52,765 nt of DNA from Rhodocyclaceae bacterium (GCA_003158255.1 PMIH01000030.1:34728-87492), one strand, 5' to 3'; shown: positions 5,888 through 52,592, counted from the stretch's first letter. Notes: a model not told the origin generated them from the sequence alone. Numbers and translations: made by a program.

Positions 5888-6672
5888 GGCAAGCATGCCG
5901 TGCTCCTCCCCGTCGGGCGGAATGCGAGTCCGTTACCGTCGGCGGCACGCAGCAGGTCGACACGGATTCCGTAAAGTTGGTAAATGGCCTCTGGCGTCAG
6001 TACATCGGCCGGCGTGCCAACCGACGCGATGCAGCCGTCGATCAACATTGCGACACGCTGGCATCCGTGCAGCGGCTGATCCGGATCGTGCGTGGTCATG
6101 AGCACGCCATAGCCTTCCTCGGCCAGACTTTCCAGCCGCGCCAGCAACCGAACCTGGTGCCCGTAGTCGAGACCCGCCAGGGGCTCGTCCATCACCAGCA
6201 GCCGCGCATCCTGAGCCAGGGCACGGGCGATCAGCGCCAGTTGTCGCTCGCCACCGGACACCTCGGTATAGGGACGATCCGCGAGATGCCCAATGGCCAG
6301 ATGGTCGAGCGCGCGCTGCACGGCCTGATGGTCGGCGGCATGCGCCGCCCGGAACATGCCGGTCACCGGCAAGCGGCCCATCAGCGCCACTTCGCGCACT
6401 GTGTAGGGAAACGGCGCAGCATGCACCTGTGGAACATAGGCGAGGCATTGCGCCAGCTTCCGCCGGTCCATCCCTGCAATCGGCGTACCGCCAAGGCTGA
6501 CTTTCCCCGCCGCTGGCTTGAGCAAGCCAAGCAGGATTTTCAGCAGCGTGCTCTTGCCGGCACCGTTGGCGCCCAGCAGGCAGACGAGTTCCCCCGGGGC
6601 CAGTGACAGCGTCGCTCCGGTCAGCACGCGCCGGCCACGATAGGCGAAATGAATGTCGCGAGCCTCGATCAT
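5884..6672 (-). CDS. ABC transporter ATP-binding protein (FecE/BtuD-like, siderophore/cobalamin class)
   Basis: The ATG at 6672 gives 262 aa, MIEARDIHFAYRG... Walker A is GANGAGKST, the signature is VSGGERQ, and Walker B is LLVMDEP. The upstream 5' part of the 619-aa ORF-track entry is a frame artefact over the permease gene. Confidence 0.85.
   Translation of the reverse strand: MIEARDIHFAYRGRRVLTGATLSLAPGELVCLLGANGAGKSTLLKILLGLLKPAAGKVSLGGTPIAGMDRRKLAQCLAYVPQVHAAPFPYTVREVALMGRLPVTGMFRAAHAADHQAVQRALDHLAIGHLADRPYTEVSGGERQLALIARALAQDARLLVMDEPLAGLDYGHQVRLLARLESLAEEGYGVLMTTHDPDQPLHGCQRVAMLIDGCIASVGTPADVLTPEAIYQLYGIRVDLLRAADGNGLAFRPTGRSTACLP
6481..6505 (-). repeat. dispersed 25-bp motif copy
   Basis: Motif strand: GAAAGTCAG CCTT GGCGGTACGCCG. 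It lies inside the ABC ATPase gene in sense orientation, read as G-K-V-S-L-G-G-T-P. Confidence 0.7.
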
Positions 6673-7736
6673 TGCGCCCATGCCCGCCGCACGCGACTCA
6701 GCACAATGAGAAAGACCGGAATCCCGAGCAGCTCGGTGACGATGCCAATGGGCAATTCGGTCGCAAACAGGTTGCGCGCCAAGCTGTCGGCGCAGAGCAA
6801 GAAAACCGCGCCCAGACTCGCCGCCGCTGGCAGCAGGCGGGCATTGCCCGGGCCGACCAGCAACCGCGCAATGTGCGGCACGATGAGGCCGATCCAACCG
6901 ATCATGCCGGCGATCGACACGGTCAGCGCCGACACCAGCGTCGCAGTGGCGATGGTGACGAGCCGCACCGTCCGCACCGGCACGCCCAGTGCCTGCGCCT
7001 CGTCGTCGCCCATGGCCAGCGCGTCGAGGGCGCGGCCGAGCAGGCACAGCAGGACAATGCCGGCGACCATGGGCACGGCAGCCCAGGCCATGTCGTTCAG
7101 GTTCACCTGCCCCAGGCTGCCCATCAGCCAATAGACGATGGCCGGCAATTGGTTGTAAGGATCGGCGAGGTACTTCACCACCGATAACAGCGAGGTAAAG
7201 AGGGCGCCGCTGAGAATTCCACCCAGGATCAACATCACCAGCGAGCCGCCACCGAACAGATGGGCGATGCCAACGCCAATACCGACCGCCGCCAACCCGC
7301 CGAGGAAAGCACTGGCCTGCACCAGCAACCAGTTGCCGCCGAGGATGATGCCCAACGCCGCACCTGCGGAAGCGCCGGCCAGCACGCCGAGAAGTCCCGG
7401 TGATACCAGCGGGTTCCGGAACAAGGCTTGGTACGATGCGCCGGAGACCGACAGCGACGCGCCGACCAGGATCGCCGCCAATATGCGTGGCAGGCGAATC
7501 TCGACGATCAGGTTGTGCAGCAACGCGTAGCGATCCGGCTCCATCGAGGTGAGACCTGTGCTCGCCGCCAGGAAGCGCAGCGTCTCCCATGCCGGCAGCG
7601 GATAGCGGCCGAAAGAGAGGGCCAACACCGTCGCCAACAGTGCCAACAACGGTGCAACGAACCAACGCGGCCAGTTCAAGCTCTTTGGCACCGTGGCAGT
7701 CGTCGTCGGCCGCGCAGTGGAAACCATTTCTGTCAC
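6669..7736 (-). CDS. FecCD-family ABC permease
   Basis: 355-aa polytopic hydrophobic ORF with FecCD/BtuC-like segments (LRLPRILAAILVGASLSVSGASYQALFRNPLVSPGLLG). ATGA-coupled to the ATPase gene. Confidence 0.85.
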   Translation of the reverse strand: MTEMVSTARPTTTATVPKSLNWPRWFVAPLLALLATVLALSFGRYPLPAWETLRFLAASTGLTSMEPDRYALLHNLIVEIRLPRILAAILVGASLSVSGASYQALFRNPLVSPGLLGVLAGASAGAALGIILGGNWLLVQASAFLGGLAAVGIGVGIAHLFGGGSLVMLILGGILSGALFTSLLSVVKYLADPYNQLPAIVYWLMGSLGQVNLNDMAWAAVPMVAGIVLLCLLGRALDALAMGDDEAQALGVPVRTVRLVTIATATLVSALTVSIAGMIGWIGLIVPHIARLLVGPGNARLLPAAASLGAVFLLCADSLARNLFATELPIGIVTELLGIPVFLIVLSRVRRAWAQ

Positions 7737-7758
7737 GAACCAATCCCTGCGCTCGACG

Positions 7759-8799
7759 TCAATGAGCCAACAAATCGTCTATGTCCGCATCCGTCGGTGC
7801 GATACCGAAGAACAGGCGATAGAAATCACGCGTCTCGCGCTTCACGTCGAACGGATAGAGGTCGGGGTAAAAGAGGTTCGCCAGCCATTGCGCCCCGAGT
7901 GTGCGCACGACCGAGGGCGGACGGTCGATCCAGTTGTGAGGCCAGCGCGGTACCAGATGGACACGCCCGGCCTTGACGGCGCGAACGTTTTGCCAGCGCG
8001 GATCTGTGCGGATCGCCGCTGCGGCGGTACGATCCTGGACAATGATGATCTCGGGATCGAAGGCCAGCACCTGTTCGAGACCAACGCGCTCCATTCCCAT
8101 GTGATCTTTCGGCTCACATCGATAGACGTTGTAACCACCGGCCAATTCAATGGCCTCTGTGTGGAACGACCGGTTGCAATCGGTGGCGAGGCCATCGGTA
8201 CCCTCTGCGTAATAGATGCGGGGGCGCCGGTTCTCGGGCACCTTGTCCACTGTTACCGCCAACCGGGCCAACGCCTTTTCGACAGACACGGCTTGCGCTT
8301 CGACCGCCGCGTCGCGCCCGAGCAACTTGCCCGTGAAGCGCAACGCACGCGGCCAGTCGGCCAACGTGTCGAGCGTGATGAACACCACCGGAATGCCCAT
8401 CTTGCCGAACGCCTCCTCGATCTTGGTCTGGTCAACGAATGGACTCTTCCAGGCCAGCGCGAGGTCCGGCTTCAAGGCCAGAACGGTCTCCGGGTTCATC
8501 TGCTGACCGACGCCGAAGATGCCGCCCACGACAGGCAAACTTTGCACGTGAGAGGGAAAGAACCGCTTCGCCGGTTCTTCGATCTTGAAGCTGACGCCGA
8601 TCATCAGATCTGGCGCCACTGCGTTTAACAGCACATTGAGTGGCGGTGCAGAACCAAAGACACGGCTGACCTTGTCCGGCACCATCACTTTGCGGCCGGC
8701 CATGTCGATGATCTCACGTGCCAAGGCGACGGAAGCCGCGCTGGCGGCGACGATCACGGTGGCGAGAACAAGCAGGCTACGCTTGAGATTCATGGTCAT
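7759..8799 (-). CDS. periplasmic binding protein, Peripla_BP_2 (FhuD/BtuF) class
   Basis: Trimmed to the ATG at 8799 (MTMNLKRSLLVLATVIVAASAASVALA, a signal peptide). The rest resembles class-8 siderophore/cobalamin binders. Confidence 0.8.
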   Translation of the reverse strand: MTMNLKRSLLVLATVIVAASAASVALAREIIDMAGRKVMVPDKVSRVFGSAPPLNVLLNAVAPDLMIGVSFKIEEPAKRFFPSHVQSLPVVGGIFGVGQQMNPETVLALKPDLALAWKSPFVDQTKIEEAFGKMGIPVVFITLDTLADWPRALRFTGKLLGRDAAVEAQAVSVEKALARLAVTVDKVPENRRPRIYYAEGTDGLATDCNRSFHTEAIELAGGYNVYRCEPKDHMGMERVGLEQVLAFDPEIIIVQDRTAAAAIRTDPRWQNVRAVKAGRVHLVPRWPHNWIDRPPSVVRTLGAQWLANLFYPDLYPFDVKRETRDFYRLFFGIAPTDADIDDLLAH

Positions 8800-8804
8800 G
8801 CTCC

Positions 8805-11042: not shown

Positions 11043-11144
11043 CGAATTTCCCCTTTTCCAAAACTGCCAGACTCTCCCTGAAGAATCAGGACTCCCTATA
11101 TGGCCGCATATATACCGACAACCACATGACCATATTTGCGTGAT

Positions 11145-11160: not shown

Positions 11161-11214
11161 AAAGCCCTACTGGCGCTATTTAAGGGATAACAGACTCAAC
11201 TGGCAATTCGATAT

Positions 11215-11340: not shown

Positions 11341-11347
11341 CATGGCA

Positions 11348-12955: not shown

Positions 12956-12963
12956 ATGAATTC

Positions 12964-13040: not shown

Positions 13041-13056
13041 TGGTCCGATGCTTGCA
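13041..13056 (+). promoter_or_regulatory. sigma-54 promoter for the Cys-rich ORF-vnfENX-nfu operon
   Basis: TGGTCCGATGCTTGCA with GG-N10-GC spacing and a good -12 TTGCA. It is 38 nt upstream of the ATG at 13094. Confidence 0.5.
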
Positions 13057-13093
13057 ACATCAGCTTGTCCGCTTGCCCAACGAGGAGTGCGCC

Positions 13094-13495
13094 ATGCCAA
13101 ACGACATCACCGCGAATACCGCCGCGACGATCGCCACATGCAAGATCTGCACGATACGGCTGGAGCAGATCTGCTACCGGCGTGCCTGGTGGTTTCGTGT
13201 CTTCCGCGAGGTGCTTGCCACGGGCATACGTATCTTTGCGCTCGCCTACGGCATGCGTGCAAGCGAGCATCCGCCGCGTTCGCCCATGTGCCACCGCTGC
13301 CTGCGCTTTCGCAAAAACGCGCTCAAGGCGCGCTCACCGCTCTTCACCTGGCTCGACGGCTACCTCAATCCAATCTTCAATCGCGTCCGCGATTCGCTGC
13401 TGACGCCCGAAGAACTCGAACAGGCTCGCGATCTGGCGAGCCGTGCCGCCACGACTGACTTTTACGACAAACCCGTCGCCACGCGCTCGCACTGA
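13094..13495 (+). CDS. hypothetical Cys-rich protein (two CxxC pairs, one amphipathic/hydrophobic segment)
   Basis: Trimmed to the ATG at 13094, which is preceded by GAGGAG; 133 aa. Contains CKIC ... CHRC and WWFRVFREVLATGIRIFALAYG. It is the first ORF downstream of the sigma-54 promoter and 33 nt before vnfE. I recognise no family. Confidence 0.5.
   Translation: MPNDITANTAATIATCKICTIRLEQICYRRAWWFRVFREVLATGIRIFALAYGMRASEHPPRSPMCHRCLRFRKNALKARSPLFTWLDGYLNPIFNRVRDSLLTPEELEQARDLASRAATTDFYDKPVATRSH
13439..13463 (-). repeat. dispersed 25-bp motif copy
   Basis: Motif strand: AAAAGTCAG TCGT GGCGGCACGGCT. It is antisense to the 3' part of the Cys-rich ORF. Confidence 0.6.
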
Positions 13496-14939: not shown

Positions 14940-16316
14940 ATGACCACCATCATCCCGACCGACAAGGCCCTGGCCGTCAATCCGATCAAGGTCAGCCAGC
15001 CGATGGGCGCGACGCTGGCCTTTCTCGGCATCGCCGCCGCCATGCCGCTCGAACACGGCGCGCAAGGCTGCACGGCCTTCAGCAAGGCTTTCTTCACCCG
15101 CCACTTCCGAGAGCCCATACCCCTGCAAACGACGGCGATGGATCATCTCGTCACCATCGTCGGTTCCGACAACAACGTCATCACCGCGCTGAAGAATGTG
15201 GCCGACATCAATCGGCCCGAAGTGATCGGTCTCGTCACCACCGGCCTCACCGAAACGCAAGGTGCCGACATCGGCCGAACCATCAAGGAATTCCGGACGG
15301 CTCATCCCCGGCACGCCAACATCGCGGTGGTACCGGTTGGCACGCCCGATACCGAGGGCTGCCTGGAATCCGGTTTTGCGCTGGCCGTCGAAGCCATGGT
15401 CGCCACGCTGGTCCCCGAGAGCAACCGCGTCGGACACCGGCCACGCCAGGTCAACGTGCTTGCGTCGGCCATGCTCACGCCCGGCGATGTCCAGGCAATC
15501 GGCGAGTGGATCGAGGCCTTCGATCTCGACCCGGTGATCCTGCCCGACCTCGGTGACGCCATGGATGGTCACTTGGAGGAACTGGGTTACTCGACGCTGA
15601 CCGCCGGTGGCACGCCACGCTGGTGCATCGCGATGATGGGCGAGTCGGTGGCAACTTTGGTGATCGGCAAATCGATGCATCGCGCTGCCGATCTCCTCCA
15701 GCGGCGTACCGCCGTACCTGACTTTCGCTTCGACAGCTTGATGGGCCTCGAAGCCTGCGACGCCTTTACCGCAACGCTGCGCCGCATCGCCGGCTCGCTG
15801 GTACCTAAGCGCATAGAACGCCAGCGCGCCCAATTGCGGGATGCCATGGTCGACTGCCACCTTCAGTTCGGCGGCACACGCGTCGCCATCGCCGCCGATC
15901 CCGACCTGCTGGCCTCGCTGGTACGTTTCTTCGCCAGCATCGGCATCGAGCCGGTCGCTGCTGTCGCCGCCGCACGTAGCGGTGTCCTCGCCGAGCTGCC
16001 CATCGAGTCAGTGCTCATCGGCGACCTGGAAGACCTCGAACGAAATGCGCGTGCTGCGGATGTCGATTTGCTGGTGGCCAACTCACACGCTGCCGAAGCG
16101 GCCCGTCGCCTTGGCCTGCCGCTATTGCGAGCCGGCTTCCCGCTCTACGACCAGTTCGGCGGCTTCGCGCGGCGCTGGGTCGGCTATGCGGGATCGAGGC
16201 AAGCAATCTTCGACGCCGCCAACCTGATTGTCGGCAAGCGCCGCGAAATCGCGCCCTACCGCTCGATCTACTGGCAAGGCACATCGCGCGCCACCGAGAC
16301 CGCGACGCTGCACTGA
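14940..16316 (+). CDS. vnfN: FeV-cofactor biosynthesis scaffold subunit VnfN (NifN homologue)
   Basis: 458 aa, NifN/K-like (PLEHGAQGCTAFSK), immediately downstream of vnfE. Confidence 0.85.
   Translation: MTTIIPTDKALAVNPIKVSQPMGATLAFLGIAAAMPLEHGAQGCTAFSKAFFTRHFREPIPLQTTAMDHLVTIVGSDNNVITALKNVADINRPEVIGLVTTGLTETQGADIGRTIKEFRTAHPRHANIAVVPVGTPDTEGCLESGFALAVEAMVATLVPESNRVGHRPRQVNVLASAMLTPGDVQAIGEWIEAFDLDPVILPDLGDAMDGHLEELGYSTLTAGGTPRWCIAMMGESVATLVIGKSMHRAADLLQRRTAVPDFRFDSLMGLEACDAFTATLRRIAGSLVPKRIERQRAQLRDAMVDCHLQFGGTRVAIAADPDLLASLVRFFASIGIEPVAAVAAARSGVLAELPIESVLIGDLEDLERNARAADVDLLVANSHAAEAARRLGLPLLRAGFPLYDQFGGFARRWVGYAGSRQAIFDAANLIVGKRREIAPYRSIYWQGTSRATETATLH
15702..15726 (-). repeat. dispersed 25-bp motif copy
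   Basis: Motif strand: GAAAGTCAG GTAC GGCGGTACGCCG. It is antisense within vnfN. Confidence 0.7.
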
Positions 16317-34946: not shown

Positions 34947-34976
34947 TTGTTAACTTTGCGCCACGAAGATCGCACC

Positions 34977-41620: not shown

Positions 41621-42957
41621 CAGCTTCGCAGGCCTGGAAGTTCGTTACGTTGGCAGACGTTGGTACAGTCGTCACCGGAAACACGCCGCCCACTAAAGAG
41701 CTTCACTACTATGGCAACGACATTCCATTCGTGAAACCGACTGAGCTTATTGACAGGCCGATTCAGACCGCGCCCCAAATGCTGTCACACGCCGGCGCGG
41801 AAGTAGCCCGCAAAGTTCCTGCGGGCGCCGTACTCGTGTCCTGTATTGGCAATCTTGGAAAGACCGGCATCGCGCGCGTGCCGGTTTCACTGAACCAGCA
41901 GATCAACGCCATCGTTTTCAGGAATGAGGTGTTGCCTGAGTTTGGCTTCTACTACGCCCAGACTCTGAAGCGATGGCTGCATGGGCAGTCATCGGCAACG
42001 ACGATTCCCATCGTAAACAAGGGCAAATTTCAACAGGCCCCTTTTCCGCTTGCGCCGTTGGAAGATCAACACCGCATCGTCGCCGAAATCGAAAAGCAGT
42101 TCTCCCGCCTCGACGAAGCCGTCGCCGGCCTCCAGCGCGTCAAGGCCAACCTCAAGCGCTACAAGGCCGCCGTCCTAAAGTCAGCCGTGACGGGACGGCT
42201 CGTCCCCACCGAAGCCGACCTCGGCCGCCGCGAAGGCCGCAACCACGAATCCGGTGCCCAACTCCTGCACCGCATCCTCGAAACCCGCCGCAGCCAGTGG
42301 CAAGGCAAGGGCAAGTACAAGGAACCCACCGCGCCGGATACCACCGACCTGCCGGAGTTGCCGGAGGGGTGGGTGTGGTCAAACCTTGCCACCGCAGCGG
42401 CGCGCGTCACGGTAGGCCATGTTGGCCCAATGAAAGATGAGTACGTTGATTGCGGAATACCGTTCTTGCGATCGCAGAACGTCCGTCCGAATCGTTACGA
42501 TGCAGAAGGGCTCAAGTTCATTTCTGCTGAGTTTCACCAACGACTGGGAAAGTCAGCCCTACATCCAGGCGACATCGTTGTGGTCCGGTCCGGCAGCGTT
42601 GGGGTTTCCTGCGTCATTCCCGAATCGCTTCCGGAAGCCAACTGTTCAGACCTGGTTATCGTGAAGGGGCCGCAGGGCGTGTTGCCGGCTTTCGGCGCGT
42701 ACTACCTGAACTCCGTTGTTGAGTCTCGCATTGCAGCCGGAAAGGTCGGCGTCGCGCTCGTCCATTTCAATACCCAGTCGGTCGCCGAACTTCCATTGCC
42801 TGTGCCGCCACTCGCCGAACAACACCGCATTGTCGCCGAAGTCGACCGCCTGCTCTCGATCGCCCGCGAAACCGAGGCCGAGGTAGAGGCCAACCTCAAG
42901 CGGGCAAAGGGGTTGCGGCAGGCGATTCTCGGCAAGGCATTTACCCCGGCGGACTGA
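41617..42957 (+). CDS. hsdS: type I restriction-modification specificity subunit HsdS
   Basis: 446 aa, GTG start overlapping the hsdR end. It has two target-recognition domains separated by conserved helices (repeated EQHRIVAEI/EQHRIVAEV). Confidence 0.85.
   Translation: MTASQAWKFVTLADVGTVVTGNTPPTKELHYYGNDIPFVKPTELIDRPIQTAPQMLSHAGAEVARKVPAGAVLVSCIGNLGKTGIARVPVSLNQQINAIVFRNEVLPEFGFYYAQTLKRWLHGQSSATTIPIVNKGKFQQAPFPLAPLEDQHRIVAEIEKQFSRLDEAVAGLQRVKANLKRYKAAVLKSAVTGRLVPTEADLGRREGRNHESGAQLLHRILETRRSQWQGKGKYKEPTAPDTTDLPELPEGWVWSNLATAAARVTVGHVGPMKDEYVDCGIPFLRSQNVRPNRYDAEGLKFISAEFHQRLGKSALHPGDIVVVRSGSVGVSCVIPESLPEANCSDLVIVKGPQGVLPAFGAYYLNSVVESRIAAGKVGVALVHFNTQSVAELPLPVPPLAEQHRIVAEVDRLLSIARETEAEVEANLKRAKGLRQAILGKAFTPAD
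42176..42200 (+). repeat. dispersed motif, weaker copy
   Basis: TAAAGTCAG CCGT GACGGGACGGCT, in hsdS. The first half is good; the second half matches only about 7 of 12. Confidence 0.35.
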
Positions 42958-43020: not shown

Positions 43021-43974
43021 GTGAAAACCTTTGAACGTTCATTTCGCCTTGAGGCGAACGAAGGGCTTGGTGCCAAACCGCGTCCGGAGCTGATCGGGCC
43101 GGTGCTGGCCCACTTGCACGACACCTTGCAGGATTCCGTGCGCATGGGATTCCTGCATTCAAGCCGGGCGCGCGGCCGCGTGCCGGCATCGTTACGACTG
43201 GCGGCCGATGTTCGGTACATCGGCCATTCTGCCGATGGCGATACGGCCACCTTGCTTCACTTCGAGGTACCGTCGTTCGGCGAGGCGGCGGCCGACCTCT
43301 ACCGGCAGCAGGGCCTTTGGGAAGATGGTCCGCAACCGGAACAAACGGCTTTCGAATTGCTCGGTGCTGCTTTGAGCGACGTGGCGGCCCGGTGTGCCGA
43401 CAGCAATCGTTTCGACAGCGGCCTATTGCATCGCCTGGCCCGCTACCGGCGCATGTTTGGACGCGGTCATCTGGACCGAATTGCCCTGCCGGACGTGGCG
43501 CTACCTCGGCCCGGACAACTCGACGCTTCAGTTGTCGAGTCCGCCAAGGCGATGTACTCGGCGACCCCGCCGTCCCGGCGCGTTCGTATCGCCGGCCGGC
43601 TGGATGTGCTGGGAGTCAGCCAGGGCATACTCAAGCTGGACCTAGGCAACGGCAATGTCGTTACCGCTCTGTGGGATGGAGATGCCGATGTCGTGGCGCT
43701 CCGGGATCACCTGAACCGGGACGTGGTGATTGAAGGCAACGCGATCTTTCGTCCTTCAGGTGGCCTGCTGCGCGTGGATGCGTCGGCGATTGCCGCGGCG
43801 GCTGCGCGGGATGATTTCTTCCGGGTAATTCCCTCTGGGGTATTGGCGCAAGACGTACAGCGTGCAGCCCACTTGCGACCCGGCGAGAAGTCCGTTTACG
43901 CGCGAATTTTCGGGCGCATTCCGGCGGAGGAAACGGAAGAGGAATTCGATGCTGCCATCGAGTCCATGAGCTGA
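43021..43974 (+). CDS. hypothetical protein (no family recognised) in the antitoxin position upstream of vapC
   Basis: The ORF track gives 43009-43974 (TTG). I prefer the GTG at 43021, 6 nt after GGAG. About 317 aa with an acidic C-terminus, EETEEEFDAAIESMS. Its stop is 7 nt before the vapC ATG. Confidence 0.5.
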   Translation: MKTFERSFRLEANEGLGAKPRPELIGPVLAHLHDTLQDSVRMGFLHSSRARGRVPASLRLAADVRYIGHSADGDTATLLHFEVPSFGEAAADLYRQQGLWEDGPQPEQTAFELLGAALSDVAARCADSNRFDSGLLHRLARYRRMFGRGHLDRIALPDVALPRPGQLDASVVESAKAMYSATPPSRRVRIAGRLDVLGVSQGILKLDLGNGNVVTALWDGDADVVALRDHLNRDVVIEGNAIFRPSGGLLRVDASAIAAAAARDDFFRVIPSGVLAQDVQRAAHLRPGEKSVYARIFGRIPAEETEEEFDAAIESMS

Positions 43975-43981
43975 CGAGAGG

Positions 43982-44434
43982 ATGGCTACAACGCTTCCGT
44001 ATCTGCTGGATACCAATATCGTGCTGCTTTGGACGCGCGAGAACAGCACTGTGGCGGAAGCCTTGGATCGGCAGTTCGGTTTGCGGGACTCACCATTTCG
44101 TCCGGCGATCAGCGAAGTCACGGTGGCCGAGTTGCTGGCATTCGCCGAAAAGTGAGGAGACAAGCGCCGGCAGTTGCTCAAGGACATCATCGACGAACTG
44201 CTGGTCCTGCCGATCTCGCGACCGGAAGTTCATCAACAATGGGCGAAGTTGTACTCACACGCTAAGGCCACCGGCCTGGCGATTCAGCACAATGACGTGT
44301 GGATTGCAGCGACGGCGAGCGTGGCCGGGTTGCGCTTGATTTCATCGGATGCCGCCGCCTTCCTGCCGTTGCGAGGGACCGGGTGGGTGGACGTGGATGT
44401 GATCGATGCAAAGACGGGAGCGCTCGTGCCATGA
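43982..44434 (+). pseudogene. vapC: PIN-domain toxin VapC with an in-frame TGA
   Basis: ATG at 43982. MATTLPYLLDTNIVLL...ELLAFAEK is followed by a TGA (44153-44155), then the same frame continues GDKRRQLL...ISSDAAAF to 44434. The PIN acidic residues are present. The N-terminal 57-aa piece is below the ORF-track cutoff. Confidence 0.65.
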
Positions 44435-44967
44435 CGCCTCTCGACGCGGCCATTCTCCGTACCGCCAATGCATACTGCGCGCTCGGTTATGGTCTGTCTG
44501 AGCATGAGCTGCAGGAGCTTGCCGATTTCCTCCAGGAAGCCGGAGAAGCACTCAATCTGCCGTTCGAGAAGCATGCGTACGGGCCTTACTCCGATACTTT
44601 GCGTCATGTCCTCAATCGGATGGAAGGGCATTCCATCCGTGGCCTTGGTGACGGCGTTGCAGATGTCGAGATCGAGCCCGTTGCGGATGCCCTGGCTGAG
44701 GCTGAAACGTTCGTCGAAGCGCACGGCCATGAGGCCATGGCGGAGCGAGTGCTGCGCGTAGGCGACTTGATTGAGGGCTTCCAGTCGCCCTATGGCATGG
44801 AGTTGCTCGCGACCGTGCACTGGGTTGCCAAACACGAAGGCGCAGCGACGAAGGAGCAGGCGATTGCCGCTGTGCGCGCGTGGAATGATCGGAAGAAATC
44901 CTTGATGACACCGGAGCATGTTGCGGCAGCGTGGAACCGGTTGGAACAGGCTGGTTGGTTGAACTAA
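44431..44967 (+). CDS. hypothetical protein (possibly Panacea/SocA-like; weak)
   Basis: ATG at 44431, an ATGA overlap with the vapC end; 178 aa. The segment FEKHAYGPYSDTLRHVLNRMEG is reminiscent of antitoxin-associated domains, but I cannot assign it. The ORF-track 5' extension overlaps vapC. Confidence 0.45.
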   Translation: MTPLDAAILRTANAYCALGYGLSEHELQELADFLQEAGEALNLPFEKHAYGPYSDTLRHVLNRMEGHSIRGLGDGVADVEIEPVADALAEAETFVEAHGHEAMAERVLRVGDLIEGFQSPYGMELLATVHWVAKHEGAATKEQAIAAVRAWNDRKKSLMTPEHVAAAWNRLEQAGWLN

Positions 44968-44975
44968 ATCGCCCC

Positions 44976-45461
44976 ATGACTAAGACAACATCGCTTTACA
45001 CCTTCGGATATGAGGGCTTAACGCTGGAGGCCTTCATTGCTCGCCTCAAGGAGATCGGCGTCCGCACGATCATCGACGTGCGCGAACTGCCCTTGTCGCG
45101 GAAGAAGGGCTTCTCAAAACGGGCGTTCGCCGAGGCGCTGCACGGTGCCGGCATCGCTTACGCGCATATGCCTGCCTTGGGGTGCCCGAAGCCGATACGC
45201 GACGCGTATCGCGCGGATGGCAACTGGTCGACCTATACGCGCAAGATCATGGGCTATTTGGCGCAGCAAGCCGCCGCCGTGACGGAGGTGGCAAAGATCG
45301 CCCGTACGACCTCAGCTTGCCTGGTGTGCTTCGAGGCTGATTTCAACTATTGCCACCGCAGCATGGTGGCCCGCGCCGCCGCTCGCGCCGGCGGGCCGGC
45401 CGTGGTGCATCTGACGGCTAGAACAGCGATCCCTGAGATTTCTGCAAAGGCCGCTGCTTAG
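44976..45461 (+). CDS. DUF488-family protein
   Basis: ATG at 44976. MTKTTSLYTFGYEGLTLEAFIARLKEIGVRTIIDVRELPLSRKKGFSK is the typical DUF488 N-terminus. Confidence 0.7.
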   Translation: MTKTTSLYTFGYEGLTLEAFIARLKEIGVRTIIDVRELPLSRKKGFSKRAFAEALHGAGIAYAHMPALGCPKPIRDAYRADGNWSTYTRKIMGYLAQQAAAVTEVAKIARTTSACLVCFEADFNYCHRSMVARAAARAGGPAVVHLTARTAIPEISAKAAA

Positions 45462-45549
45462 GCGGGTAGATCAGGCTGATGATCAGCCACTGATCGGGAA
45501 AGCGGTGGATGGCAATCGATTTGTAAGCCGGCTAAAGCCGGCATTCATG

Positions 45550-45607
45550 TTGACAATAGCCGGTTATAGCCAGCATACTTATCCACTATTGCAGGACATG
45601 ACCTGCA
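45550..45607 (+). promoter_or_regulatory. sigma-70-like promoter plus operator-like inverted repeat upstream of mobile mystery protein A
   Basis: TTGACA (45550) -N18- CATACT (45574), then TGCAGG-N6-CCTGCA (45590-45607), 12 nt before the ATG of the HTH gene. Confidence 0.35.
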
Positions 45608-45619
45608 TACAATGCCGCC

Positions 45620-46084
45620 ATGACCGATACCAATACCCGTTTGAAGCGCCTTCAACTCGCTGATGCGCTACGTACTTACCCGGCGCCGGAGGCCGCCGCC
45701 GTACCGCGTCGCGGTTGGCTGCGCGCGATTCGTGAAGCGCTTGGAATGACCCAGGGCCAACTGGGTGCCCGTGCCGGGATCAGCCGGCAGTCGGTGCAGG
45801 ACTTCGAGCGCGCCGAGGTGGATCGCCGCATTACGCTGGAGAGCCTGGACAAGCTGGCGCGGGCGATGGGATGCCGCATGGTTTATGCGCTGGTGCCCGA
45901 GGCCGGGTCGGTGGATGCCGTGCGCGAGCAACGTGCTTTGGCGCTCGCGGAGAAAATGATTCAGCCTGCGGATCACTCGATGAAACTCGAAGCCCAGGGA
46001 GTAACAGCCGAGGAACGTGAACGGCAGCGCAAACTGCTGGCCGACATGCTGCTGGATGGAAGTCCCCGCAAGCTGTGGCGTTGA
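45620..46084 (+). CDS. mobile mystery protein A (XRE-type HTH)
   Basis: 154 aa. The HTH is RAIREALGMTQGQLGARAGISRQSVQDFE. It is paired with a Fic protein, as in the mobile mystery protein A/B family. Confidence 0.7.
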   Translation: MTDTNTRLKRLQLADALRTYPAPEAAAVPRRGWLRAIREALGMTQGQLGARAGISRQSVQDFERAEVDRRITLESLDKLARAMGCRMVYALVPEAGSVDAVREQRALALAEKMIQPADHSMKLEAQGVTAEERERQRKLLADMLLDGSPRKLWR

Positions 46085-46683
46085 ATCTCGACTATCCGTC
46101 TGGTGCCACGCCGCTCGACCCGGACGAGGCAGCCGGGTTGATTCCGGCGCACATCGCCAACCATGGCCAGTTGAACGAGTGGGAGATGGTGAATGTCATC
46201 GAAGGCGAGCATTGGGCTTTCGGCCGCCGTCACCCCGATCTGCTCGATAGCGCATTCATCTGCCGCTTGCATAAGCGGTTGTTCGGCAACACCTGGCGCT
46301 GGGCCGGGAAATTTCGCACCACCGAAAAGAATATCGGTGTGGACCCGCTGCGCATTCAGCCGGACTTGCGGAATTTGTGCGAGGACGTGAAGACGCAACT
46401 CGAATTCGAGAGCTATCCGCTTGACGAGATCGCCGCCCGCTTCAGCCATCGGCTGGTGTCGATTCATCCATTCGCCAATGGCAATGGCCGCCTATCGCGC
46501 ACAGCCGCCGATCTGTTGCTTGTTCAACACGGCAGGCCTCGCTTCGACTGGGGTGCCGGGAACCTGATCGCCGACGGTGACATACGACAACGCTACTTGG
46601 CCGCACTACGCGCAGCCGACGCCCGAGACTACGAACCACTGCTCGCCTTTGTCCGCTCCGGCGGCAACATGACTTCAGGCTGA
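46075..46683 (+). CDS. mobile mystery protein B (Fic/DOC family)
   Basis: 202 aa, GTG start overlapping the end of gene A. The Fic motif HPFANGNGR is intact. Confidence 0.75.
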   Translation: MALNLDYPSGATPLDPDEAAGLIPAHIANHGQLNEWEMVNVIEGEHWAFGRRHPDLLDSAFICRLHKRLFGNTWRWAGKFRTTEKNIGVDPLRIQPDLRNLCEDVKTQLEFESYPLDEIAARFSHRLVSIHPFANGNGRLSRTAADLLLVQHGRPRFDWGAGNLIADGDIRQRYLAALRAADARDYEPLLAFVRSGGNMTSG

Positions 46684-46759
46684 TCCGGCGTCGGTATTCG
46701 CTATTCGAGAATTCAGCATTTCAACCACATGATATTGCTTTTACAGGACTATTTACTTA

Positions 46760-46785
46760 TATTCGCCATTTGCAAATAGCGAATA
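46760..46785. promoter_or_regulatory. 26-bp near-perfect palindrome (operator candidate)
   Basis: TATTCGCCATTTG/CAAATAGCGAATA with one mismatch, ending 10 nt before the ATG at 46796. A third TATTCGC half-site lies at 46695-46701. Confidence 0.4.
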
Positions 46786-46795
46786 CGGTGCAGCC

Positions 46796-47341
46796 ATGTA
46801 TCGATCCAAGTCAAATCCACAGCTTGTTCTTCGTCCCCAGGATCTGGTGGTGTTGCTGCGCTTGTCCCTGGAACGCCAGACACCGCCAACCTATGCGGCA
46901 CTCGGCAGCGAACTCGTGCTCACGGCCTCGGAGGTCCACGCCGGGCTGGAGCGCGCCACCCTGGCGCAACTGGCGCGCAAGGACAAGGCGGGCAAGGCAG
47001 CGGTGGTGCGGGACGCCCTCTGGCTGTATGTGCAGCACGGTGCCCGCTATTCGTTTCCGGCAACGCGCGGCGAAGTGACGCGGGGCCTGCCGACGGGTTA
47101 CGCCGCGCCGCCACTCAAGGAGAAGATCGTCCAGCCGAATGAACCACCGCCGGTGTGGCCGCACAAGAACGGCCCGGTACGCGGGGCGGCGTTTTATCCG
47201 CTGTATCCAACGGTGCCCGAGGCTGCGATGCGCAATCCAGCGTTGTATGAACTGCTGGCGCTTTTCGATGCCGTGCGCGGCGGCAGTCCGCGCGAACGGG
47301 CCATTGCTCTCGATTTGTTGCAGGAGCGATTGGCCGCGTGA
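46796..47341 (+). CDS. hypothetical protein (winged-helix-like N-terminus; partner of the downstream NTase-like gene)
   Basis: 181-aa ORF whose stop overlaps the GTG start of the next gene. Confidence 0.45.
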   Translation: MYRSKSNPQLVLRPQDLVVLLRLSLERQTPPTYAALGSELVLTASEVHAGLERATLAQLARKDKAGKAAVVRDALWLYVQHGARYSFPATRGEVTRGLPTGYAAPPLKEKIVQPNEPPPVWPHKNGPVRGAAFYPLYPTVPEAAMRNPALYELLALFDAVRGGSPRERAIALDLLQERLAA

Positions 47342-47817
47342 ATCCGAACGACCCCAACGTCGCGATGATGGAGTTGGTGGCGGAGCGGCTTGGCGAGCGC
47401 CTGCGCGAGGAAATGGTGTTTGTCGGCGGCGCAGTCGCCGGCCTCTGGTATCCGCATGCCCTGGCAACGGCGCAGACAACAAACTTGCCGAGCGGCACCC
47501 CGATTCGCCTGGTAACGGCGCCCGTATTTCTCGCTACCAAATTCGAAGCGTTTGCTGATCGCGGCGGCAGGGACTATCTGTTCAGCCATGACCTTGGCGA
47601 TCTGATTTCGGTCATCGATGGCCGTGACGAACTCACCGCCGAATGCCGACTGGCCGAAGCACAACTGAAAAGCTACCTTCGCGACCAGTTCCGCGCACTG
47701 CTAGCCGTGCCGGCTTTCATCGATGCCCTGCCCGGCCACCTTCCGGGAGACTCCGCAAGCCAGGGGCGGCTCCCCGATCTCGAAGACAAATTGCGCCAAC
47801 TGGCGGAACTCAACTGA
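47338..47817 (+). CDS. nucleotidyltransferase-associated (AbiEii-like) protein, apparently short
   Basis: 159 aa. The N-terminal LVAERLGERLREEMVFVGGAVAGL and the C-terminal FLATKFEAFADRGGRDYLFSHDLGDLISVIDGR resemble the two ends of NTase-type toxins. The central catalytic segment seems to be missing. Confidence 0.4.
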   Translation: MNPNDPNVAMMELVAERLGERLREEMVFVGGAVAGLWYPHALATAQTTNLPSGTPIRLVTAPVFLATKFEAFADRGGRDYLFSHDLGDLISVIDGRDELTAECRLAEAQLKSYLRDQFRALLAVPAFIDALPGHLPGDSASQGRLPDLEDKLRQLAELN

Positions 47818-47820
47818 ACC

Positions 47821-47928
47821 ATGAACGCCTCCACCCTCGTCCAGAAACTCTGGAACTACTGCAACGTGCTGCGCGACGACGGCATGTCGTATGGCGACTA
47901 TGTCGAGCAGTTTGCTTGTCTGCTCTGA
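47821..47928 (+). pseudogene. duplicated 5' fragment of hsdM (35 codons then stop)
   Basis: 47821-47910 matches 48982-49071 at 88 of 90 positions (MNAS(T/I)LVQKLWNYCNVLRDDGMSYGDYVEQ). The sequence then diverges and reaches a TGA at 47926. Confidence 0.8.
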
Positions 47929-47935
47929 TTGACTA

Positions 47936-47971
47936 TGCCCAATATGGGCATTAACATTCCCAAAATGGGCA
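47936..47971. promoter_or_regulatory. two tandem operator-like palindromes
   Basis: TGCCCA-ATA-TGGGCA (47936-47950) and TTCCCA-AAA-TGGGCA (47957-47971), with starts 21 nt apart. They overlap the annotated 5' end of the MNT gene. Confidence 0.45.
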
Positions 47972-48582
47972 CGAACACCAAAGCACCCTCCACCCACACA
48001 AGCCTCGCCGACGCGCTGTTCTCCGGCACGCAGCAGCGTGTGCTCGGCCTGGTCTTCGGTCAGCCGGAGCGTAGCTTCTACGCGACGGAACTGATTGGGC
48101 TTACCGGCGCTGGCTCGGGCGCGGTGCAGCGCGAACTGGCGCGGTTGGCGCAGAGCGGTCTGGTAACGGTGCGTCCGGTGGGCAACCAGAAGCATTACCA
48201 GGCCAATCCGGATGCGCCGATCTATGCCGAACTGTGTGGTATCGCGCAAAAGACGGTCGGCCTTGCTGAGCCGCTGCGCGAAGCCTTGGGCTCCCTGGCG
48301 AAGAAGATCACGGCCGCCTTTGTGTACGGTTCAGTCGCGAAGCGGCAGGACACGGCGGCAAGCGACATCGACCTGATGTTGATCAGCGACAAGCTGACCT
48401 ATGCGGACGTCTTCGCGGTGCTGGAGGACGTTGGCACCCGCCTTGGCCGGCCGGTGAATCCAACGCTGATGACCCGCAAGGAACTGGCGAAACGCATTGC
48501 CAACGACAATTCCTTCGTCACGCGCGTGCTGGCCCAACCCAAGCTTTGGCTGATCGGCGGCGAACATGACCTCGCCGTTTGA
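47965..48582 (+). CDS. wHTH plus minimal nucleotidyltransferase (MNT-type antitoxin-like)
   Basis: I prefer the ATG at 47965 (the ORF track starts at 47929, inside the palindromes). It has a winged-helix region (GSGAVQRELARLAQSGLV) and the NTase motif GSVAKRQDTAASDIDLML. Confidence 0.65.
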   Translation: MGTNTKAPSTHTSLADALFSGTQQRVLGLVFGQPERSFYATELIGLTGAGSGAVQRELARLAQSGLVTVRPVGNQKHYQANPDAPIYAELCGIAQKTVGLAEPLREALGSLAKKITAAFVYGSVAKRQDTAASDIDLMLISDKLTYADVFAVLEDVGTRLGRPVNPTLMTRKELAKRIANDNSFVTRVLAQPKLWLIGGEHDLAV

Positions 48583-48985
48583 GAACCTCACCGGTTTCGG
48601 CAAGCCGCTGAAGGCGGAACCGCCGGACGCGAAGGAGTTCGCCGGCCTATGCCGCTCCGGCCTGGCACGGCTCAAGGATGCGGCGAACGAAGGGCTTTCG
48701 CTCGAAGGTCGCTTCGACCTGGCCTACAACGCCGCCCATGCATTTTGTCTCGCCGCGCTGCGCCGGCATGGCTACCGTTCGACGAACCGCTACATCGTGT
48801 TCCAACTGCTGCCGCATACCCTTGGGCTCGGTCCCGAAGTCTGGCGCGTGCTTGCCAAGTGCCACGACGTCCGCAACCTCGGCGAATATGAAGGCGATCT
48901 CAACGTCGACGAGCGCCTCGTTGCCGATCTGATTTCGGCCTGCCGAGCCGTTGCGGCGCGCCTCGATACCCCGCCTTCCTTATGA
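48566..48985 (+). CDS. HEPN-like protein (toxin partner of MNT)
   Basis: 139 aa, helical, overlapping the MNT end by 17 nt. It has an R-containing motif, HDVRNLGEY. Its TGA overlaps the hsdM ATG (ATGA). Confidence 0.5.
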   Translation: MTSPFENLTGFGKPLKAEPPDAKEFAGLCRSGLARLKDAANEGLSLEGRFDLAYNAAHAFCLAALRRHGYRSTNRYIVFQLLPHTLGLGPEVWRVLAKCHDVRNLGEYEGDLNVDERLVADLISACRAVAARLDTPPSL

Positions 48986-50472: not shown

Positions 50473-50478
50473 GGCCGG

Positions 50479-52413
50479 CTAAGTGCCTGCTTGCGCAGGC
50501 GCGTTGTCAGCCATGGTGGTACGCCGCAAGCGTCTGTAGAGCGTGCTGCGGCTGACGCCGAGGCGGCGCGCGGCTTCCGACATGTTGCCGGCGGTGCTGC
50601 CGACCGCGCGGTGGATGGCGGCGTCGGACATCGCCCGCAGGTTGTCGGGCACGTCGGCTTCGAATGGCTTCAACGCGGGCCCGCTCAGTTCTTCTTTCAA
50701 GTCGTCGGGCAAATGTTGCCAGCCGATCAGCGTTTCGCTGTCGTCGAGCAGCGCGCAGGCGGTGCGCAGCGCGTTGGCGAGCTGACGAATGTTTCCCGGC
50801 CACGAATAGGCGCCAAGCGCGGCCGCCAGTGACGCATCCAGGGTAACGTGGCGGCGATCGGTCGTTTCGTCGAGCAGGCGCGTGACCAGCATGGTGAAAT
50901 CGCTGCGCTCGCGCAAGGCCGGCAGCGCCAGCGCCATGCCGTTGATGCGGTAGTAGAGGTCGGCGCGGAAGCGGCCGTTTCCCATATCGGCCTTGAGGTT
51001 GCGGTGCGTGGCGCAGACCAGTGTGAAGTCGACAGGAATGGACTTGCCGGCGCCGAGCGGCGTCACCTGCTTTTCCTGCAAGACGCGCAGCAGTCGGGCT
51101 TGCAGGGCCAGCGGCATGTCGCCGATTTCGTCCAGGAACAAGGTGCCGCCGTGCGCTTCGCGGATGCGGCCGGGGTTGCCCTCGCGACGCGCGCCGGTGA
51201 AGGCGCCGGGGACGTAGCCGAACAGTTCGGACTCGATCAGGTTCTCGGGCAGTGCAGCGCAATTGACGGCGACGAAGGGCGCGTCGGCACGCGGGCCGGC
51301 GTCGTGCACGGCACGCGCGAAGACTTCCTTGCCGACGCCCGACTCGCCTTGCAACAGTAGCGGAATGGTCTTGCCCAATACCTTGCGCGCGCGGTCGATC
51401 GCAGCCGCGAAGCGCTCGTCACCGGTGTCAATTGCTGCCAGCGCATCGCGCGGTTTCGCCTTGATCGCGGCGCTCGGCACCGGCCGACGGCCGAGTTCGA
51501 CACGCACGAAGAAGCGGCGACCACCCTGCCCGTTGACTAGCATCGGCTGTGCGGGCGAACGGCGGCCCCATTCGAAGAGGGATTGCAGGCTGAGGTCGAG
51601 CAGGCGGGACACGGGCGTGGTGCCGATGTCCGCGTTGCACAGGCCGAGCAGCGCCAGACCGGTGCGATTGGCGCCGATGATCCAGCCGTCTTCCGAGAGC
51701 GCGACGATGCCTTCGGCGACGGTGCCGATGCCCTCGGCGAGCGCATGAAAGCGCAAGCGCAAGCCCGTGCCGTAGCTGCTGTCAAAGAGGCGGTTCTCGA
51801 TCATCTGCGCCGCCGCCTGCACGAGGCCGAAGGTGTGCGGGTGACGACCGCGCTGGTCGCCGGAAATGTCGAGCACACCGAGCAAGCGGCCATTCGGCGC
51901 TGTCACCGGCGCGGCGGCGCAGGTGAGAAAACCGTTGCGCTCAAGATAATGTTCGCCGGCATGAATGGTGACGGACGAGCTTTCCGCCAGCGCGGTGCCG
52001 ATGGCATTGGTGCCGCGATAACGCTCGTTCCACGAGGCGCCGGGCATCAGGGCGACGCGTTCGGCGCGGCCGAGGAAATCGGTGTCGCCGAGTGCTTGCA
52101 GCAGCACGCCGCGATCGTCGGCGAGGATGACCATGCTGCCGGAATCGCGCGTCTGGGCGTGGAGGTATTCCATCACCGGCCGCGCATGGGCGATGAACTC
52201 GCGCTGCTGGTCGGCGGCGCGGGCGAGTTGGCCGGCGGAAAGATGGGGCACTTCGGGCAGACGGCCGACGGGTGCCAAGCCGGCGCTGAAGCAGCGCTGC
52301 CACGAACGGGCAACCGTATCTTGCGCAAAGCCGGGCGGCAGTTCGCCATGCTCCAGCAACTGATGGCGGGCAAAGCGTAACGCCGCACCCGCATCCCTCG
52401 GTATCGGGGTCAT
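50479..52413 (-). CDS. sigma-54-dependent Fis-family activator with N-terminal GAF-like sensor (AcoR-like)
   Basis: 644 aa. The AAA+ core is GESGVGKE and ESELFGYVPGAFTGA, with a C-terminal HTH AARRLGVSRSTLYRRL. It is divergent from an aldehyde dehydrogenase gene that has a sigma-54 promoter. Confidence 0.85.
   Translation of the reverse strand: MTPIPRDAGAALRFARHQLLEHGELPPGFAQDTVARSWQRCFSAGLAPVGRLPEVPHLSAGQLARAADQQREFIAHARPVMEYLHAQTRDSGSMVILADDRGVLLQALGDTDFLGRAERVALMPGASWNERYRGTNAIGTALAESSSVTIHAGEHYLERNGFLTCAAAPVTAPNGRLLGVLDISGDQRGRHPHTFGLVQAAAQMIENRLFDSSYGTGLRLRFHALAEGIGTVAEGIVALSEDGWIIGANRTGLALLGLCNADIGTTPVSRLLDLSLQSLFEWGRRSPAQPMLVNGQGGRRFFVRVELGRRPVPSAAIKAKPRDALAAIDTGDERFAAAIDRARKVLGKTIPLLLQGESGVGKEVFARAVHDAGPRADAPFVAVNCAALPENLIESELFGYVPGAFTGARREGNPGRIREAHGGTLFLDEIGDMPLALQARLLRVLQEKQVTPLGAGKSIPVDFTLVCATHRNLKADMGNGRFRADLYYRINGMALALPALRERSDFTMLVTRLLDETTDRRHVTLDASLAAALGAYSWPGNIRQLANALRTACALLDDSETLIGWQHLPDDLKEELSGPALKPFEADVPDNLRAMSDAAIHRAVGSTAGNMSEAARRLGVSRSTLYRRLRRTTMADNAPAQAGT
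50502..50526 (+). repeat. dispersed 25-bp motif copy
   Basis: CGTTGTCAG CCAT GGTGGTACGCCG. It is antisense to the last codons of the AcoR-like gene (RRTTMAD). The first half is degenerate, and the last 21 nt are identical to the copy at 38506. Confidence 0.6.
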
Positions 52414-52526
52414 GTGTCTCCTCCTGTTGCTATCGTGCAGGCTTCCTCTTACGGGAAGCTGTCAGTGGCTCAGTTTAAGCAGTTCTCCCGGTTCCACAAG
52501 CGCCACGGCCGAAACCAGCGGCTACC

Positions 52527-52577
52527 TGTGCCATTTTGCGACATCTGTCCCGCGATGGCACGTCGCACGGCGTGCCA
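52527..52577. promoter_or_regulatory. candidate enhancer region for the AcoR-like activator
   Basis: TGT-N11-ACA (TGTGCCATTTTGCGACA, 52527-52543), plus GTGCCA/TGGCAC elements at 52528, 52556 and 52572. These include a perfect TGGCAC-N10-GTGCCA inverted repeat. The region lies 40-90 nt upstream of the -24 element. Confidence 0.3.
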
Positions 52578-52592
52578 CCACGACTGACTTTC
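52568..52592 (-). repeat. dispersed 25-bp motif copy
   Basis: Motif strand: GAAAGTCAG TCGT GGTGGCACGCCG. It is intergenic and a perfect match to my consensus. Confidence 0.7.

Follow-up and report, generated by a model that had tools for sequence, protein, structure and literature searches.

The stretch of DNA analyzed here (the window) comprises 52,765 nucleotides from a Rhodocyclaceae bacterium (GCA_003158255.1 PMIH01000030.1:34728-87492) and carries a short DNA word that recurs inside otherwise unrelated genes. The initial annotation had described this word as a 25-bp bipartite motif built on the 8-mer AAAGTCAG. A position weight matrix (PWM) built from the copies was scanned across the window and returned 12 sites with scores of 22.6 to 39.9 bits, recovering every copy that had been listed, including the degenerate one at 50502, which lies on the plus strand, and the weak one at 42176. 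Host genes and reading frames were assigned by Pfam together with an iterated whole-ORF (open reading frame) codon model; GC content at third codon positions alone and a local codon model were unsuitable for this purpose and called the wrong strand at some sites, such as the ABC ATPase gene. The 12 copies are as follows.

6481..6505, minus strand: motif copy GAAAGTCAGCCTTGGCGGTACGCCG, sense in an ABC-transporter ATPase gene (5884-6681, minus strand; PF00005), encoding GKVSLGGTP; 37.5 bits
13439..13463, minus strand: motif copy AAAAGTCAGTCGTGGCGGCACGGCT, antisense in a 147-aa ORF of the nitrogenase cluster without Pfam support (13052-13495, plus strand), close to its 3' end; 34.3 bits
15702..15726, minus strand: motif copy GAAAGTCAGGTACGGCGGTACGCCG, antisense in a NifN/VnfN-type gene (14940-16316, plus strand; PF00148), reading RRTAVPDF; 31.2 bits
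28742..28766, plus strand: motif copy GAAAGTCAGTCGTCGTGGCACGCCG, sense in an ORF of 297 aa (28523-29416) that has no Pfam domain, encoding ESQSSWHA; 37.9 bits
35637..35661, minus strand: motif copy GAGAGTCAGTCGTGGCGGTACGCCA, antisense in a ModD-type QRPTase gene (34956-35807, plus strand); 36.1 bits
37197..37221, plus strand: motif copy GAAAGTCAGTCGTGGCAGGACGCCA, sense in modC (site 1), encoding ESQSWQDA; 34.3 bits
37984..38008, plus strand: motif copy GAAAGTCAGCCGTGGTGGCACGCCT, sense in the TOBE domain of modC (site 2), in another frame, encoding GKSAVVARL; 37.6 bits
38502..38526, plus strand: motif copy AAAAGTCAGCCATGGTGGTACGCCG, sense in a GNAT acetyltransferase gene, at the C-terminal end, encoding KSAMVVRR; 38.2 bits
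39115..39139, plus strand: motif copy GAAAGTCAGTCGTCGCGGTACGCCG, sense in the fragment of the split hsdR that encodes its N-terminus (38884-39399); 38.7 bits
42176..42200, plus strand: degenerate copy TAAAGTCAGCCGTGACGGGACGGCT, sense in hsdS, with a D2/D3-like ending (dialects defined below); 22.6 bits
50502..50526, plus strand: degenerate copy CGTTGTCAGCCATGGTGGTACGCCG with a decayed first half, antisense to the C-terminal end of a sigma-54 activator gene (50479-52359, minus strand); 27.0 bits
52568..52592, minus strand: consensus copy GAAAGTCAGTCGTGGTGGCACGCCG, intergenic, upstream of the sigma-54 activator gene; 39.9 bits

The host genes had been called unrelated, and the Pfam assignments agreed: they comprise an ABC ATPase, a NifN/VnfN-type protein, a ModD-type QRPTase, ModC (with two copies), a GNAT, the HsdR N-terminal fragment, HsdS, and the sigma-54 activator. 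Eleven of the 12 copies lie in genes (7 sense and 4 antisense) and 1 is intergenic. The codon model confirmed the three sense frames that had been proposed (ESQS.., GKSAV.., and GKVSL..) as well as the four antisense copies and the single intergenic copy, and it placed all four antisense copies in one antisense frame (RRTA..DF).

The frequency of the word was compared to that expected from dinucleotide shuffles of the window. The 8-mer AAAGTCAG was found 12 times, 8 on the plus strand and 4 on the minus strand, which are the counts originally reported, while 0.88 occurrences were expected and no shuffle contained more than 3. For the 25-mer GAAAGTCAGNNNNGGYGGYACGCCG, allowing up to 3 mismatches, 10 occurrences were found and 0.01 were expected. 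The PWM scan left the range from 8 to 22 bits empty, indicating that the window copies are discrete elements and not the tail of a compositional distribution. The unit has the asymmetric consensus (G/A)AAAGTCAG-YCGT-GGYGGYACGCC(G/A), is approximately 24 to 25 bp long, and is sharply bounded, with the information per column reaching background exactly at motif positions 1 and 25 and nothing in common among the sequences flanking the window copies. The bipartite structure with a 4-nt spacer stood in part. The spacer was 4 nt long in all 164 copies of the window and the compared loci, but its bases (YCGT) were conserved too, which shows that the element is one rigid unit of approximately 24 bp and not two independent halves. 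That the second half accompanies the first was borne out, with 8 of its 9 occurrences in the window lying within motifs and 1 lacking the first half. The 8-mer also occurs at 19743 and 42549 with no second half, which fits chance expectation. A single copy of the motif, which had been said to be nonpalindromic, indeed formed no significant hairpin (minimum free energy of the DNA fold, -3.4 to -3.8 kcal/mol; z, -0.7 to -1.7), and an Rfam scan of the window and five loci matched no family.

We then examined the distribution of the word. One genome per species was scanned for the exact pattern. More than 104 matching stretches were listed, and nearly all of those listed came from approximately 12 species represented by metagenome-assembled genomes (MAGs) labeled Rhodocyclaceae, Rhodocyclales, or Betaproteobacteria and obtained in many independent studies. 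The motif was present in at least 13 Rhodocyclaceae-type MAG species at approximately 1 copy per 3.7 to 4.6 kb, and the 8-kb blocks that were scanned held 87 further, unselected copies that lay outside the search pattern. The window belongs to none of the motif-bearing genomes listed; the best overlap among them was one stretch with 91% identity. Loci containing ModC orthologues were chosen by gene to avoid the bias of selecting for the motif itself. Three such loci, L107 to L109 (ModC identities of 90, 89, and 84%), had 6, 6, and 5 copies per 21 kb, or 17 copies in 63 kb, which extrapolates to about 1,000 copies per 4-Mb genome. Relatives with ModC identities of 77 and 75% carried 7 to 9 copies in a diverged dialect, and no copies were found in the gene-selected loci of relatives with identities of 79 and 73%. 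The motif-free sister lineages L110 and L113 encoded the same proteins at a similar GC content and had none of the copies. The pattern was found in 2 of 2.9 million viral contigs, which shows that the motif is not a phage element. One of the viral matches, L105 (IMG/VR UViG_3300020576_005104; 63% GC), has copies at 4713-4737 and 5522-5546, one of which is weaker and has D3-like features (GTCGG and ACGGC); this contig probably represents either a prophage or a piece of DNA of the motif clade that was misbinned.

The larger sample used to analyze placement comprised 214 copies in 773 kb of DNA, drawn from the window and 13 genomes. Coding sequence accounted for 89% of this DNA but for only 122 of the copies (57%), with 83 (39%) intergenic and 9 on gene edges. 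The motif density was therefore 1.0/kb in noncoding DNA versus 0.18/kb in coding DNA, an approximately 5.6-fold intergenic enrichment, and the view that the word resides mainly inside genes, which the window alone (11 of 12 copies) had suggested, did not hold for the larger sample. The coding copies were divided into 77 sense (44, 17, and 16 in the three frames) and 45 antisense (20 and 18 in two frames, plus 7 in the TGA-containing frame); those 7 of the 122 coding calls provide an estimate of the gene-calling error. The 77:45 division is close to the 3:2 ratio expected if the three sense and two antisense stop-free frames are all usable, and all five were used. Of 82 intergenic copies, 52 had the 3' end of a gene as their nearest boundary, with a median distance of 10 nt. 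Convergent gaps were the richest in copies (1.93/kb) and divergent gaps, which contain promoters, were the poorest (0.48/kb). Orientation was evenly divided both relative to the adjacent gene (26:26) and relative to the GC skew of the locus (80:80), in keeping with the earlier statement that the motif lacks strand polarity. This unbiased orientation rules out both an RNA-level or transcription-coupled role and a polar signal of the Chi or KOPS type. Three intergenic inverted pairs capable of forming long hairpins were found among the 214 copies, at L040 3383-3438, L059 6578-6639, and L045 639-723; the L040 pair makes a nearly perfect stem of 25 bp, closed by a loop of 6 nt, between AAAA and TTTT and thus resembles a bidirectional intrinsic terminator.

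The manner in which the copies arose was examined by comparing orthologous sites. In alignable blocks, motif copies were identical at 24 to 25 of 25 positions between species whose flanking sequences were 70 to 86% identical, and alignments of motif-containing with motif-lacking species were mostly in register. One hundred twenty ModC orthologues were free of insertions and deletions at both window sites. At these sites, distant orthologues have VNGEVWQD and G-x-SPLVARL and members of the motif clade have V(E/K)SQPWQD and GKSAVVARL, with graded intermediates at site 1 running from NGEVWQD through DGQPWQD and NSQPWQD to (E/K)SQPWQD. The corresponding codons run from AAC GGC GAG GTC TGG CAG GAC through GAT GGC CAG CCA TGG.. 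to GAA AGT CAG CCG TGG CAG GAC GCC. The copies at 37197 and 37984 thus arose in place, from ancestral NGEVWQD and G-x-SPLVARL, respectively. The copy at 37197 was assembled on a preexisting partial match, the DNA encoding W-Q-D (TGGCAGGAC), and its mismatches at motif positions 17 and 19 retain the W-Q-D that the protein requires. Orthologous conservation extended to the ModD-type site at 35637, where the orthologous site of L107 (8601) has a copy as well. Conservation at synonymous sites, a check proposed in the initial annotation, was evident in modC, where third positions were invariant in 12 of 14 motif codons versus 128 of 257 codons elsewhere in the gene (Fisher P = 0.008). Together with the use of five frames and the intergenic copies, this invariance upholds the proposal that the motif is a signal at the level of DNA and not a product of protein homology. 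At the orthologous sites compared, the copies arise by stepwise substitution under a directional force acting on the DNA and not by insertion of a mobile unit. The D3 lineages carry an extra antisense copy approximately 310 nt into modC (L111 10310-10334 and L112 10312-10336, both on the minus strand) that is absent from the lineage of the window, and site 1 of the window is absent from the D3 lineages, which indicates site turnover between lineages.

Three dialects of the word, D1, D2, and D3, were distinguished, and their order matches that of ModC identity. The positions that set the dialects apart are 8, 10 to 13, and 23. D1 ends in ..ACGCC and D2 in ..ACGGC, the latter in all 12 copies of L107 and L108; D3 is AAAGTCGGCGCTGGCGGGACGGC, and L111 and L112 carry AAA(A/T)GTCGGCGCTGGCG(G/A)GACGGC. 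Variants specific to single genomes were also seen, with DATJQH having ..CAGCCCCGGTGGTACGCC, JBNKCS having A at positions 1 and 25, and CAZRRI having C at position 19. In the D2 genomes, ModC has GGC (Gly) for GCC (Ala) at site 1 and CGG for CGC at site 2. The codons at the C-terminus of the GNAT acetyltransferase (KSAMVVRR) illustrate the pattern.

D1 DNA: AAG TCA GCC ATG GTG GTA CGC
D2 DNA: ..CGG
D3 DNA: AAG TCG GCG ATG GTG GTA CGG
Motif-free outgroup: GCG TCC GCG ATG ACC GTG CTC (a different peptide)

Within a single site, synonymous codon choice thus tracks the consensus of the whole lineage, a pattern that, on the codons compared here, is one of concerted evolution. Such tracking at orthologous sites requires that one recognition specificity act on every copy, and it excludes both site-by-site selection on the protein and simple vertical inheritance. 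A hallmark of the DNA uptake sequence (DUS) is that its dialects track phylogeny (PMC3630211). The window, whose own ending is ACGCC, contains two copies with the ACGGCT ending that is the hallmark of D2 in L107 and L108, at 13439-13463 and 42176-42200; these might have been imported from a relative with the D2 dialect or might reflect an older state.

The reading that we prefer, although we doubt it slightly more than we believe it, is that the 24- to 25-bp word may be a new, unusually long, lineage-specific self-recognition sequence comparable to the DUS and to the uptake signal sequence (USS), maintained by biased uptake and recombination. The proposal, made by analogy, is that the word would work like a DUS or USS, the likeness being one of function and not of family membership, and both biased DNA uptake as the driving force and the existence of a receptor are inferred. 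One sequence-specific factor, by analogy a component of the DNA uptake machinery of natural transformation, would read double-stranded DNA containing AAAGTCAG-N4-GG.G..ACGCC in either orientation. Fragments with good copies would be favored and would then enter the chromosome by homologous recombination, so that mutations improving the match would be fixed more often than those damaging it (molecular drive). Copies would build up where they are least harmful, such as immediately after stop codons, between convergent genes, at the C-termini of proteins, and in coding sequence where a likeness to the word already exists, and a drift in the specificity of the factor would be followed by all copies of a lineage, producing dialects. 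This reading fits best because over-representation, orientation independence, permissive placement, in-place origin, orthologous conservation, dialects, and terminator-like pairs make up the published signature of DNA uptake-enhancing sequences (DUES) (PMC2817400, PMC3630211, and bioRxiv 10.1101/2025.10.24.684340). Known uptake sequences are 34.5 to 65% within ORFs (PMC2817400), a range that includes the 57% measured here, and they also accumulate in permissive regions (bioRxiv 10.1101/2025.10.24.684340). In Zoogloea, a relative, a nonconjugative plasmid was taken up in mixed culture (PMC10257627), and this is the only support for competence that comes from context. The resemblance to uptake sequences noted in the initial annotation was thus sustained insofar as these provide the best-fitting known model, with 3'-end enrichment and the occasional inverted pairs included, whereas length, density, and the distribution among codon-atypical genes were not typical of them.

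Several results weigh against an uptake function. The motif has 23 to 25 strongly conserved positions and so falls outside the 9- to 12-nt cores of known uptake sequences (bioRxiv 10.1101/2025.10.24.684340), and its density of approximately 0.25 copies/kb is several-fold below that in Neisseria or Haemophilus (approximately 1/kb). About half of known DUES copies sit in terminators, and inverted pairs were scarce here, at 3 among 214 copies. The uptake model predicts depletion in recently acquired DNA, and the lack of depletion in codon-atypical genes (0.19/kb in the lowest quartile versus 0.17/kb in the other three combined) runs counter to it, with codon atypicality being a crude proxy for recent acquisition and the loci having been chosen mostly by motif. 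The scarcity of the motif in viral contigs, in turn, speaks for depletion. Of the pilus and competence genes that the initial annotation had proposed to look for, none was found in the approximately 1 Mb of sequence covered, in which a pilin N-terminal regular expression matched no type IV pilin N-termini. Finally, selection on binding sites for an intracellular protein would give every one of the population-genomic signatures listed above as well.

In the literature searched, the motif was nowhere described and uptake sequences were not linked to Rhodocyclaceae or Rhodocyclales; queries with the 8-mer or an 11-mer brought up nothing but primers and noise. A late-2025 survey placed uptake sequences only in Neisseriaceae and Pasteurellaceae, which are host associated (bioRxiv 10.1101/2025.10.24.684340). 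If the uptake reading is true, the word would be a third independent case, in free-living, N2-fixing Rhodocyclaceae from groundwater, fens, and activated sludge, and self-recognition in transformation would not be peculiar to pathogens and commensals. Its recognition architecture (24 bp, rigid, and bipartite) would also differ greatly from those described, its three natural dialects would be available for receptor identification by covariation, and the word would provide a marker with which recombination and DNA of foreign origin could be traced in metagenomes from the environment. Should the uptake reading be wrong, hundreds of sites whose synonymous codons evolve in concert would still call for an unknown genome-wide force.

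The word was also compared to the two known uptake systems. The DUS of Neisseriaceae, 10 to 12 nt long and read by the minor pilin ComP, shares with the motif hyper-representation, a nonpalindromic sequence, use of either orientation, occurrence in stop-free frames of genes and in intergenic DNA, enrichment near gene ends, occasional terminator-like inverted pairs, dialects that follow phylogeny, and copies kept at orthologous sites, and both hosts are Betaproteobacteria. The two also share CG-N-CTGA on one strand (motif, CGGCTGAC or CGACTGAC; DUS, CGTCTGAA), although a 6-nt likeness could be due to chance; the CTG core is essential in the DUS (PMC3630211). Unlike the motif, the DUS has 10 to 12 conserved positions rather than 23 to 25 and approximately 1 copy rather than 0.25 copies per kb, and inverted pairs are rare for the motif; the remainder of the sequence is unrelated, and the DUS is documented only in Neisseriaceae, whereas the host of the motif belongs to the Rhodocyclaceae. 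The USS of Pasteurellaceae, a 9-nt core within an extended motif of approximately 30 bp, is likewise mostly coding (65% in Haemophilus influenzae versus 57% for the motif), lies at poorly conserved residues and protein ends, evolves in place by molecular drive that alters local peptides, has an extended footprint of more than two helical turns, and occurs in two or more dialects. It differs in its degenerate AT-tract flanks, whereas nearly every position of the 24-mer is 90 to 100% conserved and the linker is fixed at 4 nt, and also in its sequence, which is unrelated save for a superficial AAAGT..GCGGT, and in its gammaproteobacterial host family. The cognate receptors are the minor pilin ComP in Neisseriaceae and, by prediction, ComN/PpdA in Pasteurellaceae.

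The alternative that survives best, which we consider unlikely without thinking it negligible, is that the copies form an array of binding sites for an intracellular sequence-specific factor, with selection on site density and dialects arising by coevolution with the factor. Candidates for such a factor would be a chromosome-organizing or repair protein or a self-marker of a defense system, possibly guided by nucleic acid. In-place origin, synonymous conservation, dialects, orientation independence, and permissive placement are expected equally from such an array, and the uniform conservation of approximately 20 positions suits a multidomain or guide-based reader better than a pilin contacting approximately 10 bp; the nondepletion in atypical genes is also easier to explain. 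Conversely, a positional function would not lead one to expect sites crowded within 10 nt of a stop codon, the analysis yielded no candidate protein, and there is no precedent with such a geometry. We know of no nucleoid, segregation, or occlusion site family (parS, matS, NBS, SBS, KOPS, or Ter) that is nonpalindromic, 24 bp long, and present at approximately 1 site per 4 kb on both strands irrespective of replication and transcription. Chi and KOPS resemble the motif in being over-represented chromosomal words tolerated in coding DNA, but they are 8-mers strongly co-oriented with replication, whereas the motif is divided 80:80 relative to GC skew and is three times longer. The cyanobacterial HIP1 (GCGATCGC) is closer in being over-represented genome-wide both within and outside genes, in being maintained at the DNA level, and in having no settled function, but HIP1 is a much denser, methyltransferase-linked 8-bp palindrome and the motif is a 24-bp asymmetric word. 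It is conceivable, though in our estimation doubtful, that the word is the address of an undescribed system reading a rigid, asymmetric 24-bp site at approximately a thousand sites per genome that evolve in concert, and it would then count as a genome-wide signal of a categorically new kind.

A short mobile or copy-paste repeat, whether spread like REP (repetitive extragenic palindromic) sequences and REPINs by a RAYT-type transposase, left as the remnant of a miniature inverted-repeat transposable element, or templated from a master copy as gene-conversion patches, is in our view improbable. The abundance and sharp bounds of the copies, the bimodal PWM scores with few weak copies, the lineage-specific variants, the intergenic enrichment at gene 3' ends, and the inverted doublets would all suit such a repeat, and some motif-less orthologues differ block-wise from those with the motif, as in L073 versus L004. 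However, the motif is neither a palindrome nor a hairpin, 57% of the copies (122 of 214) are intragenic and use five frames, and the ModC and GNAT copies lie in register with no added length, with graded intermediates and with the W-Q-D mismatches retained. Orthologous copies also shift with the dialect by single synonymous substitutions, transposase domains, including RAYT, were not found in the ORFs bracketed by copies, and viral contigs almost never contain the motif. The same division is seen in the comparison with REP and REPIN families, which are likewise short, abundant, lineage specific, enriched in the short intergenic stretches that follow genes, and at times arranged as inverted doublets, but REPs are palindromic, extragenic, and spread by insertion, whereas the motif is hairpin-less, mostly intragenic, and built by in-register substitution.

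The possibility that the 25-mer is the end of a structured repeat of approximately 72 nt, found in JAHJPX and JADJAS, was considered and rejected, as this repeat is absent from the window and accompanies only 7 copies. The repeat, GTGGGGC-N3-GCCCCATCCCTCGC.TTGCTCGGGACCGCC..GGCGTCCTGCGCCCTTCGG, is preceded by (A)AAAGT and followed by the full motif or by the motif from GTCAG onward, and the duplicated AAAGT on its flanks indicates that the repeat inserts into the motif. It was located on the plus strand at L017 5370-5504, L083 3295-3429, and L034 1346-1480 and on the minus strand at L017 3298-3432, L068 4636-4770, L090 6349-6483, and L034 6304-6438. Its fold consists of two hairpins (z, -2.1 to -2.7) whose stems change in a compensatory manner from copy to copy. 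It matches no Rfam family and looks like a small nonautonomous element that inserts at AAAGT with target duplication.

A compositional, mutational, or technical artifact (codon usage, convergence of protein motifs, a mutational hotspot, or assembly or adapter sequence) can be given almost no credence, for although several copies overlap recurrent protein motifs (G-x-V-x-L-x-G of ABC ATPases and V-A-R-L of TOBE) and all of the genomes concerned are MAGs or metagenome contigs, only 0.01 copies are expected in dinucleotide shuffles, the word occupies five frames plus intergenic DNA, the sister lineages L110 and L113 lack it despite having the same proteins and a similar GC content, the copies vary by point changes while reading frames stay open, and the assemblies come from many independent studies and platforms. 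A sigma-54 promoter, suggested by the TGGCAC in the second half, was also rejected, since no -12 TTGC was present at the right spacing, half of the copies have TGGTAC, and orientation is unbiased.

Several features of the surrounding DNA were recorded as well. A cluster for alternative nitrogenase and molybdate handling that carries motif copies extends from 11456 to 38093 and includes Oxidored_nitro genes, AnfG/VnfG, NifQ, NifZ, ModD, ModABC-type genes, and TOBE regulators; its gene order is kept in the relatives L107 and L114. From 38884 to 41620, hsdR is divided into three ORFs of 171 aa (HSDR_N), 609 aa (ResIII/helicase), and 94 aa (EcoEI_R_C), while it is intact in relatives (912 aa in L111 and 1,079 aa in L107), and no hsdM adjoins the hsdS of the window. 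The same split was present in L114, L115, and L116, which are contigs from three other samples, indicating a real, decayed restriction-modification locus and not a sequencing error. The 8.3 kb between 42.2 and 50.5 kb are free of motif copies, and positions 43100 to 48600 contain short genes with low codon-model scores (20 to 45) and few Pfam domains; the domains of L114, which is co-linear with this region, are DUF488, HTH, Fic, and Polbeta. The stretch next to the restriction-modification locus is possibly a recently acquired island.

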